Of a DNA stretch of 64,000 bases, positions 54,373 to 58,557 are shown in pieces (the stretch's first letter is position 1; every line of letters begins with the position of its first letter). The position numbers and the translations under genes were made by a program. The stretch is from Curvularia clavata (taxonomy: Eukaryota), in NCBI GenBank assembly GCA_023920165.1, contig CP089277.1, positions 2,356,001 through 2,420,000 of the forward strand, in the 5' to 3' direction. The notes under the pieces were generated by a model. That model did not search any database. It had not been told where the DNA came from and saw nothing but the letters and a program-made list of their open reading frames with translations.

Positions 54373-55632
54373 ATGTCGTCGAACAACGTTATGGGTACCC
54401 TCATGCTGGCAGCCAGCAGCCACTTGGAGCGACGACGAGAAAAAAAGGACGTCACATGTCCGGTGGAAAATACAGAAGGTCCTGAAATCGTCTACTTTGT
54501 TGGAGAAATGACATATCACCGCTTCGCAACCCTGCTTTCCCTTGGTTGCGGCATCCTCAGTACAGTTATCGTGGTGGTATTGATAATGCTACACGCCTTC
54601 AACTACTCGAATCCAGTCCAGCAACGACAGGTTATCCGCATTGTTTCCTTGATACCCTGGGTTTCGCTATTCTCCTTTCTCATCGTCTGGCAAGTCGAAA
54701 TCGGAGAATACTTGGAACTCTCACTCGACCTTGGATGTGCAATGGCATTGTCATCGTTTCTGCTCTTTATGTGCGATCTCGTGCTCTCGCATCCAGGCGG
54801 CTTCGAGTCTCTGTTTAGAGAACCAGCGGGTACCAATCCCCAGCGCAAATCTGATAGCCCAAAGTGGCTGAAGGTGACCTTTACTCCTGCACCTTGAAGC
54901 TTATTGAACTTCAACTAACAATCAACAGCAAACATGGTACGGCGTCCTTCAATTCATCCCCGTCAGCGCCATCCTCTGGGCTGCCACCGCCATCTCCCTG
55001 GCTGTCGGCACATACTGCAAGCAGTCCAATAGCCCACACTTTGCCCACATCTGGATCACGGTGATCAAGGCGGTCAGCATGGTGCTAGCCATCATCTACT
55101 CGCTCAAGTTCTACAAGCGAAACAAGCCTCTCTTGTCTAAACACGGTATCATACTCAAACTCTTGACCTTCAAGGGTGTCCTCGGTCTCAACTTTCTCCA
55201 ATCGGTAAGAATCTGCCCTCATACAACCAAACACAGCACTAGCAACAAAGACTCTAACTCGAGCCTTTCCAGTTCATCATCTCCATCCTCGCCGGCAGGG
55301 GTGTCCTCAAGCCCACACAGTACATGACCTTCCACGACATCAACACTGGTCTCGCCTCCCTCATTCTCGCCTGCGAAATGCCCATTTTTGCCGTCCTCCT
55401 CATCTTCGCCTTCTCACATCAGCCCTACAGACGTGCCCAGGGCGGCCCTGCCTCTGGCCCTCTGAATGCCATTGTCGATGCGATTAATGTCTCGGATTTG
55501 CTGGGTGCCTTTTTCCGCGGACCCATGAGACTGGTGAGGGATCAGCAGAGGCAGATTCTCAGACAGGACAGTATGAAGATTCAGGCGTTGCCGAATACAG
55601 GTGATGAGGAGAGTACCGAGTATAGGCATTAA
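54373..55632 (+). CDS. Organic solute transporter alpha / TMEM184-like membrane protein
   Basis: HAFNYSNPVQQRQVIRI, LKLLTFKGVLGLNFLQ and CEMPIFAVLLIFAF. Introns 54874-54928 and 55205-55272 keep the frame. Confidence 0.82.
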
Positions 55633-56244
55633 AGGGAGGGGGCAGAGTGGTTTAGAGGGTGAAGGATAGTGTGACGATACTCTGTAATGACGTTTTGATT
55701 GTTTAGCGACATGGTGTTGGGGTTTTGGTTACTAGATTGCACTTACTAGTGGCATGTTCTTTTGTTTCGCTCTCCGGGCACTTCGCTATGCTTGAATAGG
55801 ATATCAACTTTTTAGTATGCGCAAGTGTGGTTCTAGACGATTGGAAATGACATTTAAATGAACTGATCTATCCTCAATAATAACTTCTCAGAAAGGCTTG
55901 AGATTTAAAAGTATAGTCATATCCTGCAATCGTCTTTGGGTAGGGTTCTAAAAGACGAGTAGTTCTGATATCAGACTACGTATGGAGGATGGGACTCCCA
56001 TCTTGTAAACAAATTCTAATTACAACTATATTGCTTGATATGAGAAACTCGTATACTATAAATCCTTCATAAATATAAAAAATCTCTATAGAATCTCATC
56101 TTCGCGAACAACTTCATATAGTGCAACTCCATACAACTAACTATAGCATCTAGCACAGCTGCCTTTCACTAGCTGAGAAAAGTAGTAGAAAGAAAGTCCC
56201 CAAAATGTGACAAAAAATCAAATGACTCAAATCATATAATTTTT

Positions 56245-56431
56245 ATCAAGCGATCAACTCCCAGGTACTGAAGTTGCCCGACGCCCGCCTTCCGGATCGA
56301 ACCAACGTTCTACGGCCGACGCCTGCGCCCCTCCCAGCTTACAACCCAAATATCTATTTGTTAGTAAGTCTTGCAGTTTTCAAGATTCATTGTGCTGGAA
56401 GGCCCACCCGATTGGGGAGTGATCGCTTGAT
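56245..56431 (-). repeat. Inverted repeat (17 bp, one bulge) enclosing ~150 nt; candidate structured ncRNA
   Basis: atcaagcgatcaactccc (56245-56262) is complementary to gggagtgatcgcttgat (56415-56431). The repeat itself is seen directly; RNA status is unproven. Confidence 0.6.
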
Positions 56432-57043
56432 GGTGTAGTGTGGGACGTTGTAGTATATATGCTTGCTGGTAGTGAATAGCAAACAAACACTTCGATTATG
56501 TGTGATCACAGCGCACTTTGCAGAGGGCGGCAAACGGCCACACGGAAATTTCGTGTAGTATGCAACAAACGAGCACCGTAAAGTTATTGAGCAACTCATT
56601 CCAAGGCAGTCCCTCGTACGCTCCCATTAAAAAAAACTCTTTCACAACCACCCCATGCTTCAACTAACGCCTCACTAACCGCCAATGTATCACACATCAT
56701 TAGGATGATGTTATGACAATACACATAGTATAAGAGTCCTAGATTGAAACTTCTGATGTGACATATACAAATAAATTCTCGGCTAATCAACAAAATCTCT
56801 CTCCGAAACCCCCAAAAGAATATCTCTCTTTCTTTACATGGTTATCTCTGCACGTCCAACGCTGCTCTGCAGAAATGATTTTTGGCCCTTCTGTCTGGTC
56901 TGCAAGTTATATACCTCTTACTTTCCACACACATCAAAATGGTTTCTCAACGCACACAAACAGCAGCAGTAACACAGTGAACCATACAGGAAATGATGTT
57001 TTTCTCTTGGTGGAAAGAATAAAAGACTCCTGCATGACACTGT

Positions 57044-58557
57044 CTACTGCACCTCGTTGTTCCACCGTCGAGGTTGCGCCGGCAGTCCATTTGCCGACGG
57101 ACCCCTGCTTCCGGGTCTGCTGTTGGATCCGTCTACTGAGGGTGCAGGTCGCATGGGTAGGTTGACAACATTGCTGCTGCTGGAAGATCGGCTGGGATAT
57201 GATGGGCGGCGAGGTGCTGGTTCGCCGTCGCCGTTAGCCACTCTTTGTCTTGGATCGCTGGATTCACGCTTGTGGGGCGGCGAGCGTTCGCGCAGCTTCT
57301 CCTTGATGGCTGATGCTGGTGCGGAAGGCGCAAGATGCGACTTGCGCTTGTTGTGTTCAATCATAGAAATAGCCCAGGCTTCAAGGTCGACGGGTGTACG
57401 TTTGGCGGCTTGAAGGAAGGCATCGTGATCCTGCTGTCATCAGTATGTGTATCTACATGCAATATGGCGTAAACCTACGTAGAGTTCCTTGGGTGTAGGT
57501 CGCTCTGCCGGGTCCTTCATCAAACACTTGGCAATCATGTCCTCCAAAATTGATGGGAAGGCATCGCTCTTTGGCAGCTTTGGTGAGGGCTCCAAAACAA
57601 TTTGTTGCAGAAGATCAAGAATACCCTGAGGGCCTCCGGCATCATCGTCGTCGCCGCTCCCGGCGAATGGGAATTTGCCAATGGCCAACTCCATGAGTGT
57701 AAGACCGACACTCCACACATCCGACTTGACTGTGTATGGCGATCCCTGTATCCGCTCTGGTGCCATGTATGTGCCAGTTCCAACGAATGTTTCGGCAATG
57801 GAGCCCTCAAGTTCGCTTGACACACCAAAATCACATAGCTTGATGTTGCCCTTTGAGTTTACGAGGATGTTCGAAGGCTTGAGATCGCGGTGCATGATGC
57901 GGTGGGCGCTGTACAAGTAGGCGAGGCCGCCGAGGACGGCTTCTGAAATCTTTCCCAGTACGTCGACACGTACTGGTCCGAATGTTCGAGATACCCAGTC
58001 AAGAGAGCTATAATCGACAGTTAGCATCCATGGAATTTGCAGTGTGTACGAGAGTTTGCCTACCCCACGTCCATGTATTCCATGCACATTATGACATCGC
58101 CTGACGAGTTTTGGAAAGCGCCGTAAAAGTCGACAATGTAATCCGAGTTGCAGTCGTGCATAATGCGGAGTTCTCGTACGATTCGTTTTCGGACTTCGTT
58201 TTTTGCTTCAACATGTATGACCTGCCCTTGTCAGTCTCTTGCTTTCCTAGTACCCCACCTGCTTATCCGACTCACCTTTCTCGCCATTATGACCTTGGTG
58301 GCAGCGTGCTGCACCTTGCTGACTGTTCCTCCGTTTCCTGAGCCCAATTCCCGAAGCACTATCAGATCCTCCGCCTTAAGGTCTAGCTGAAACTCGACGC
58401 CAATCTCGAGCGTATCCTGCTTCTCGTCGTTGGCGCGGGCACCGGGTATTTGAGCGTCGCCGGCCGAGGGTGCTGGCTTGGGTGCAGGAGCGCTGAGTGC
58501 GAGACCTTTGACATTCTTCCTCTTCATAGTCTTCTGCTTGAAGGCTGATTCTGCCAT
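57044..58557 (-). CDS. STE7: MAP kinase kinase, pheromone/pathogenicity pathway
   Basis: MAPK docking site KRKNVKGLAL, GSGNGGTV, HRDLKPSN, DFG, activation loop SIAETFVGT and YMAPER. Three introns (~58275-58223, 58063-58008, ~57477-57432). Confidence 0.93.

Follow-up and report, generated by a model that had tools for sequence, protein, structure and literature searches.

Described systems closest to the locus

Complex, pseudoknotted, stand-alone RNAs are seldom found in fungi. In the text available from two fungal screens the motifs are mostly single-copy or linked to mRNAs (PMC5640933; Gao et al. 2021), and for the second screen that text describes structures that are chiefly single-copy, with no use of the term pseudoknot. 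The element described here lies in a window of 64,000 nt of Curvularia clavata DNA (G000:C4:2356001-2420000), and all its features are on the minus strand. Judged from sequence, it is a member of a real, uncatalogued, multicopy family of pseudoknot RNA type with a Pol III layout, rather than a single gene with an intron.

The U6 gene of this genome (L023, RF00026) resembles the family in having a TATA at -30, a B-box-like word, a T-run and one upstream CAAAC. The family differs in having no U6 sequence, in carrying the B-box inside the RNA, whereas the U6 B-box-like word lies downstream of the gene in this genome, and in the number of loci, 62 against 1.

The 5S rRNA genes (RF00001) are dispersed, and 37 were found, compared with the 62 loci of the family. 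Both groups comprise dozens of dispersed loci of Pol III type and have a 10-nt G-rich word in common. However, the family profile has no match to six 5S loci, the fold differs, and family copies are only 51-94% identical. The invariant linker of the family (window 56403-56411) is found again within the 3' half of 5S genes L124-L129, the half in which TFIIIA box C lies. Of these genes, L124 is strongly unlike L125-L129 in its 5' half, and the sequences suggest distinct 5S types.

Group I intron P3/P7 and RNase P/MRP P2/P4 cores run through a stem, an insert, stem 2, a return, a hairpin and a return. The family resembles them in this strand order only; it has no Rfam match, and their conserved sequence boxes were not seen.

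Neurospora milR-1 to -4 resemble the family in the Pol III transcription predicted for it, TATA-like elements, a T-run and length, and in the accessible portion of the paper pri-milR-1 is about 170 nt long with TATA-like elements and T-runs (PMC3547838). Compared with what that portion describes, the family has a pseudoknot core, many genes, and no guide common to its subfamilies. The AfuSINE2/3 elements, as far as the available text presents them, are also short and dispersed, with a B-box, a T-tract and sometimes a second B-box (PMC5063351). The family lacks their target-site duplications (TSDs) and their tRNA or 5S head, and has an external TATA, upstream motifs and a covarying pseudoknot.

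The fungal HDV-like ribozymes, in the accessible part of PMC5640933, are likewise small, pseudoknotted, multicopy fungal RNAs. Between stem 2 and the stem-1 return, the family has 2-4 nt and not their P3/L3 hairpin. The nested double pseudoknot of the HDV-like class was not found in the family, nor was an Rfam match. Introner-like elements of Dothideomycetes are multicopy and structured and carry branch-point and acceptor words (PMC3609843, PMC4457414, as far as their available text goes), whereas the family is mostly intergenic, with its own promoter-like and terminator-like motifs and no consistent donor.

None of the motifs in the accessible text of Li and Breaker 2017 (PMC5640933) fits the family, and four family motifs are absent from three of its supplements, which may not include its alignments. 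In the literature searched, as far as its texts were available, there is no description of the family; 'intergenic structure 2' of Gao et al. 2021 was compared by text only.

Searches for known RNAs

Rfam 15 gave no match at or near the gathering score for the 44 loci scanned, namely the window, for which the earlier note on this DNA had proposed the scan, and 43 further members. ARAGORN found 0 tRNA genes in the window and 0 in 24 of 24 loci. The members are not Fungi_SRP; the canonical SRP gene is elsewhere (136.6 bits) and is not matched by the family profile. No cmscan match to RNase P or MRP was found on members, and the MRP gene was located at another place. The SRP, MRP, U6 and 5S genes of the genome all lie elsewhere. 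The genome search for nuclear RNase P was empty, and its control was also without a match, so this search is uninformative. For Ro60/TROVE, the Y RNA partner, an exon-wise search gave 0 matches, with the control found in 2 of 14 genomes.

Viral contigs gave 0 matches, and the plasmid and phage collections gave matches only at E 2-7; none of the collections searched (viral, metagenome, plasmid, phage) is a fungal genome set. In metagenomes, 11 matches to a 20-nt word all look bacterial, with 10 at 12-15 bits against the profile and one, L017, at 22 bits, other pattern matches lying at 12-16 bits. One Streptomyces match was judged to be chance. In L017:84-144, a metagenome contig with bacterial genes, a 25-nt stretch and an upstream 9-nt word are common with the subfamily-A P3 hairpin. 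The stretch lies inside nested palindromes, beside a four-helix-bundle-like gene, and the likeness is possibly due to chance or convergence.

The element and its setting

On either side of the element is a gene whose 3' end faces it: an OST-alpha gene (PF03619, plus strand) and a kinase gene (PF00069, minus strand), the latter presumably of the STE7 type. Genes with spliced introns, an SRP RNA of the fungal kind and scattered 5S genes are the marks of a filamentous ascomycete in this genome. Re-reading of the coordinates placed all the minus-strand motifs where the earlier note had put them. TATATA is at 56459-56454 and begins 28 nt ahead of the terminal helix. The 54-nt segment 56407-56354 holds TACTAAC and TAG, the B-box-like word is at 56303-56294, and T6 is at 56217-56212. 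The helix arms given as 56431-56415 and 56262-56245 are also present, as 19-nt arms that are 84% complementary. T6 follows the helix only after 28 nt because the window copy has an extra 3' hairpin.

The GC-rich core and strongly AT-rich flanks that had been described are a real but moderate contrast: GC is 53% in the element, 64% in its 3' core, 34% downstream and 42% upstream. The statement that no ATG-initiated reading frame explains the element needs a correction, as a 70-codon minus-strand ATG frame (56599-56387) overlaps its 5' part. For the 201-nt minus-strand sequence, the predicted fold is better than that of any of 200 shuffles (z -4.01). The analysis supports the proposal of an RNA-like unit that is structured, is absent from the catalogues searched and has a Pol III-type layout; what the earlier note missed is that at least 62 related loci exist, this unit among them, and that its fold is a pseudoknot.

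The element is probably separate from the STE7 3' UTR. Contigs on the STE7 side end at 56728, 56711 and 56667 in three studies whose runs are guessed to be RNA, a weak hint that the element is outside this UTR. In runs X19 and X17, also guessed to be RNA, the introns of the neighbour genes are spliced (55100-57600). X19, X17 and X16 have no contig over the element and none spanning 56407-56354, and X9 has one low-depth piece at 56166-56320 with 1 difference, the neighbour genes being uncovered; both observations speak neither for nor against expression.

Family members and subfamilies

DNA and pattern searches of the 32.4 Mb genome, checked locus by locus, place the family at 62 or more dispersed loci on all 8 contigs. 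The figure is a lower bound, since several weak pattern rows were left out of the locus-by-locus check. Subfamily A has 10 loci, including the window copy, subfamily B has 12 and subfamily C has 40. Both ends are kept in 49 of the 62 loci, while 13 are truncated, deleted or split, and the elements are 170-320 nt long. The 23 aligned copies, like all copies compared, come from one genome, and no two have the same sequence. Within A they are 55-83% identical, within B 71-94%, and copies of different subfamilies 51-72%. The nearest relative of the window copy is 82% identical to it. A copy of subfamily B is found 2.7 kb to the left of where the window starts. The loci L039, L044, L045, L048, L056, L057, L059-L062, L065-L070, L119, L121 and L122 were fetched and are not members.

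Predicted fold

The RNA is predicted to form a conserved three-stem H-type pseudoknot inside the terminal helix P1. The strand order is P1, G-rich linker, P2 5' strand, variable domain, a 5-nt strand, 2-4 nt, P2 3' strand, P3, a second 5-nt strand and the P1 3' strand. The two 5-nt strands pair across P2, which gives the H-type pseudoknot, and the third stem is in loop 3.

In the window copy, the P1 arms are 56415-56431 (5') and 56245-56262 (3'). The near-invariant G-rich linker from P1 to P2, which is also the would-be donor, is at 56403-56411 and has GGTGG in 23 of 23 aligned copies. C copies have a second linker-like word at the base of loop 1. P2, which is stem 1 of the pseudoknot, has its 5' strand at 56394-56402, within the proposed intron, and its 3' strand at 56330-56338. 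It is 98.4% paired over the 23 copies, with double changes in 3 of 8 pairs, one of which, from U-A to C-G, is private to the window copy. The variable loop-1 domain (56346-56393) ranges from 24 to 184 nt across copies and contains here the branch-point-like word (56366-56360) and the TAG (56354). Stem 2 joins 56341-56345 to 56273-56277. The P3 hairpin inserted in loop 3 is at 56280-56329, with an apical hairpin at 56310-56299 and one G-G mismatch in the window copy.

Over the 23 copies, 95.0% of 802 cells are paired, and double changes occur in 12 of 36 pairs (38 cells). Slid controls reach 29-42%, and 0 of 500 shuffles reach the observed value, a result inflated because the structure was derived from the same, related sequences. 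Nine C copies have 94.8% of 288 cells paired, with compensatory changes in P1, and P1 in subfamily C has 96% of cells paired with double changes in 2 of 11 pairs. The window copy has two concerted changes of its own.

In stem 2, 99.1% of 115 cells are paired (23 copies). Its central pair is C-G in 11 copies, U-A in 11 and C-A in 1, and only in 1 copy has one side changed without the other. When the tree is built with these columns left out, it gives 3 changes, at least 2 of them forced by well-supported branches. The pair has switched between U-A and C-G at least twice, and probably three times. In 30 motif-parsed copies stem 2 is paired in 147 of 150 cells, and in 19 more copies in 85 of 95, where some of the misses are alignment slips; the counts include 3 of the 30 rows with a mis-assigned helix arm and about 4 of the 19 with a mis-assigned start. 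Columns with G-U exceed those with A-C (21 vs 7, p 0.013), an excess that favours an RNA of the minus, or element, strand.

Other pairings were also considered. The 3' strand of stem 2 could instead be drawn against the G-rich linker, but a G-purine mismatch in 23 of 23 copies rules this out. The 5' end could pair with the linker in 22 of 23 copies, without compensatory change. A G-quadruplex of the four GG tracts and a pairing of the linker with tRNA CCA ends come into consideration as well.

The fold bears on the proposal that the loci encode precursors of Pol III milRNAs, comparable to Neurospora milR-1 to -4, with Dicer cutting P1, P3 or the 3' hairpin. Size and signals are similar to those given for pri-milR-1 in the available part of PMC3547838, and the subfamily-A copies hardly vary over a stretch of 20 nt in P3. 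This stretch is not common to B and C, however, the motif is absent from the paper texts searched, and the constraint is centred on a pseudoknot that a Dicer substrate does not need. The simple milRNA hairpin that the earlier note had suggested is disfavoured because the pseudoknot covaries, and milRNA precursors are very unlikely.

Promoter-like and terminator-like signals

The motifs in and around the pseudoknot unit lend fair support to Pol III transcription, presumably of the unspliced RNA. Upstream, the window copy has two GTTTG-type motifs, distal (56529-56538) and proximal (56479-56490). This motif, found in either orientation (GTTTG/CAAAC), is enriched among copies: it occurs at -150 to -41 in 28 of 30, compared with 5-7 control windows, and in 17 of 19, compared with 4 and 6. 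The TATA box (56454-56459), about 28 nt ahead of the predicted start, is conserved in position. A TATA-like word is found at -36 to -21 in 22 of 30 copies against 0-4 in 30 control windows, and in 10 of 19 against 0-2. The promoter words hold a fixed distance, though the C upstream regions are unalignable (1 aligned pair among 28). The predicted start is pyrimidine-purine, and two pyrimidines precede the A in 29 of 30 copies.

The predicted Pol III transcript would cover 56212-56431, about 215-220 nt, if it starts at the first base of the helix and ends at the first run of five or more T. The B-box or T-loop word inside P3 (56294-56303) is present in 23 of 30 copies, compared with 0.48 in shuffles (maximum 2), and is doubled in 5 copies; in several C copies it forms a 7-nt T-loop on P3. 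Together with TATA and the B-box, a terminator of at least five T gives a U6-like Pol III set, and it is present in 30 of 30 parsed copies, for which the T-run also served as a parsing criterion.

In 14 of 30 copies no more than 2 nt separate P1 from the start of the T-run. An added hairpin that ends in the T-run is present instead in 9 of 12 B copies and in the window copy, where it is the 3' extension at 56212-56244. A second T-run (56202-56205) is a putative back-up terminator, and a second run of at least four T occurs within 45 nt in 28 of 30 copies. Further downstream, an AGTGAA-type motif (56162-56170) has counterparts at +5 to +70 in 14 of 30 copies, compared with 0-3 control windows.

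The proposed intron

The earlier note had read 56407-56354 as an intron-like segment. Fungal introns generally have a minimum length of roughly 40 nt. The corresponding segments in six A copies are 54, 37, 51, 94, 30 and 31 nt long (37 in L002, 30 in L009, 31 in L025). Branch point and acceptor are found together in 0 of 12 B copies, which retain the fold, and the 5' half of the segment is helix P2. The intron reading is unsupported on these three counts. Since the 5' half is P2 with a compensatory change, and B is without intron signals, the unspliced RNA appears to be the constrained form. The segment is probably no intron, though occasional splicing is possible.

A spliced Pol III RNA, with an intron from the G-rich linker to a YAG and P2 as a splicing switch, was weighed against this. 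A branch-point-like word with a YAG is kept in 6 of 9 A copies and in 6 of 9 and 12 of 19 C copies, the length variation is located in this segment, and in the C copy L080 a word resembling the donor consensus tops the stem. The spliced form of the window RNA folds as well as the unspliced form (z -4.85 vs -4.26). Three of the would-be introns nevertheless fall below the fungal minimum, no B copy qualifies, and among the 13 GTA-type words of 19 C copies none has a G at +5. C copies also have up to four branch-point-like words in tandem, mostly without a usable donor. Splicing as the normal route is the least probable of the readings considered, and the sequences are better read with the branch-point-like word as a displayed binding motif.

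Gene family or mobile element

The loci are, on balance, probably an undescribed Pol III pseudoknot RNA gene family under birth-and-death evolution. The main rival is a selfish non-autonomous element, SINE-like or retrozyme-like, whose pseudoknot would be selected only in masters, where it self-cleaves or recruits the mobilising enzyme, with most copies dead. At least 62 dispersed copies in subfamilies, 13 of them broken, and an internal B-box would suit such an element. So would the B copy L054 (C3:3510.0k), which has a broken terminator and appears to lie in the intron of a gene, with its upstream part cut near -75 by eye; from its translation by eye, we take the host gene to be tyrosinase-like.

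No TSD signal was found: the mean longest shared word in own flanks is 3.93, compared with 3.98 in cross-copy flanks (30 copies), although old TSDs may have eroded. There is no upstream-versus-downstream inverted match that would indicate end-to-end TIRs, and the P1 inverted repeat lies within the unit. A tRNA-, 5S- or 7SL-derived head was not found, and the B-box/T-loop is in the 3' half. The shared unit in A and B reaches -143 and +58, past the predicted transcript on both sides, so that it includes TATA, upstream motifs and post-terminator sequence, which transcript copying would not carry. In subfamily C the flanks are unalignable but the motifs are kept. The lack of TSDs, TIRs and a tRNA or 5S head, the unit that exceeds the transcript and the retained C motifs favour genes. 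The termini also differ from those of FoHeli Helitrons; the search for PF14214, the Helitron2/FoHeli partner, was empty, and its control was likewise without a match.

The same results bear on the MITE that the earlier note had named as the alternative to an RNA. The many dispersed copies it associated with a MITE do exist, but the TSDs expected with them give no signal and the unit ends have no TIR, so the preference for an RNA over a MITE holds.

The 13 broken loci and the private changes of single copies speak against genes. At Watson-Crick pairs these changes are without strand bias: 14 lead to G-U, 11 to A-C and 14 to other mismatches, while 4 are double changes that keep the pair and 6 are concerted with a shared partner. 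The lack of strand bias suggests that many copies decay like neutral DNA, as the copies of a mobile element would. The changes are concentrated in few copies, and 14 of 30 have none. That some copies are constrained and others decay is compatible with birth-and-death genes as well as with an old element that has several masters. The selfish element is possible, at a clearly lower probability than the gene family.

Proposed mechanism and meaning

For the gene family, a working model can be drawn. The TATA, the upstream activator sites and the internal B-box would recruit Pol III as at U6, and transcription would start at the first base of P1 and stop in the T-run. The unspliced RNA is modelled as a P1-closed pseudoknot of P2 and stem 2, with P3 in loop 3 and a variable loop 1, and the closed ends would confer stability. 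The G-rich pseudoknot core could conceivably be a protein-binding scaffold or decoy that is needed at a high dose. The loop-1 domain, which displays short, often branch-point-like words, might bind an RNA-binding protein of the branch-point type. The family would expand through duplication at the DNA level, in which promoter and terminator are copied along, and decay would remove copies, as in birth and death.

A bolder form is doubtful: a new class of abundant Pol III pseudoknot RNA whose invariant G-rich core is catalytic or binds a ligand or protein, and whose loop-1 modules are swappable and display branch-point-like words in tandem, by which the splicing machinery is titrated or redirected.

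With at least 60 loci that have promoter-like motifs and strong covariation, the family may be an overlooked and possibly abundant RNA class or, alternatively, a non-autonomous element of a new kind, one that takes its own promoter along as it spreads. In addition, the paralogs supply a testable structure model, natural compensatory variants and probes.

Individual copies with unusual features

The copy L040 ends in four repeats of a 15-nt unit followed by the terminator, and its downstream flank is duplicated about 90 nt further on. About 290 nt past the family copy in L082, at L082:1826-1903, there is a degenerate fragment like the 5' end of large-subunit rRNA (25.5 bits, E 0.038). The subfamily-C copies L130 (G000:C2:3236.8k-3244.2k) and L131/L132 (C7:183.7k-194.4k) are each split by an insert of 7-11 kb. 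The two insertion points fall in one region of the element and differ by a few bases, and both inserts are bounded by related inverted repeats adjoining TA. A NACHT-WD40 gene is present in one insert, and the second contains a TPR-kinase gene, a HeLo gene and two DDE_1 transposase reading frames; these inserts are possibly cargo-carrying pogo-type transposons that favour family loci.
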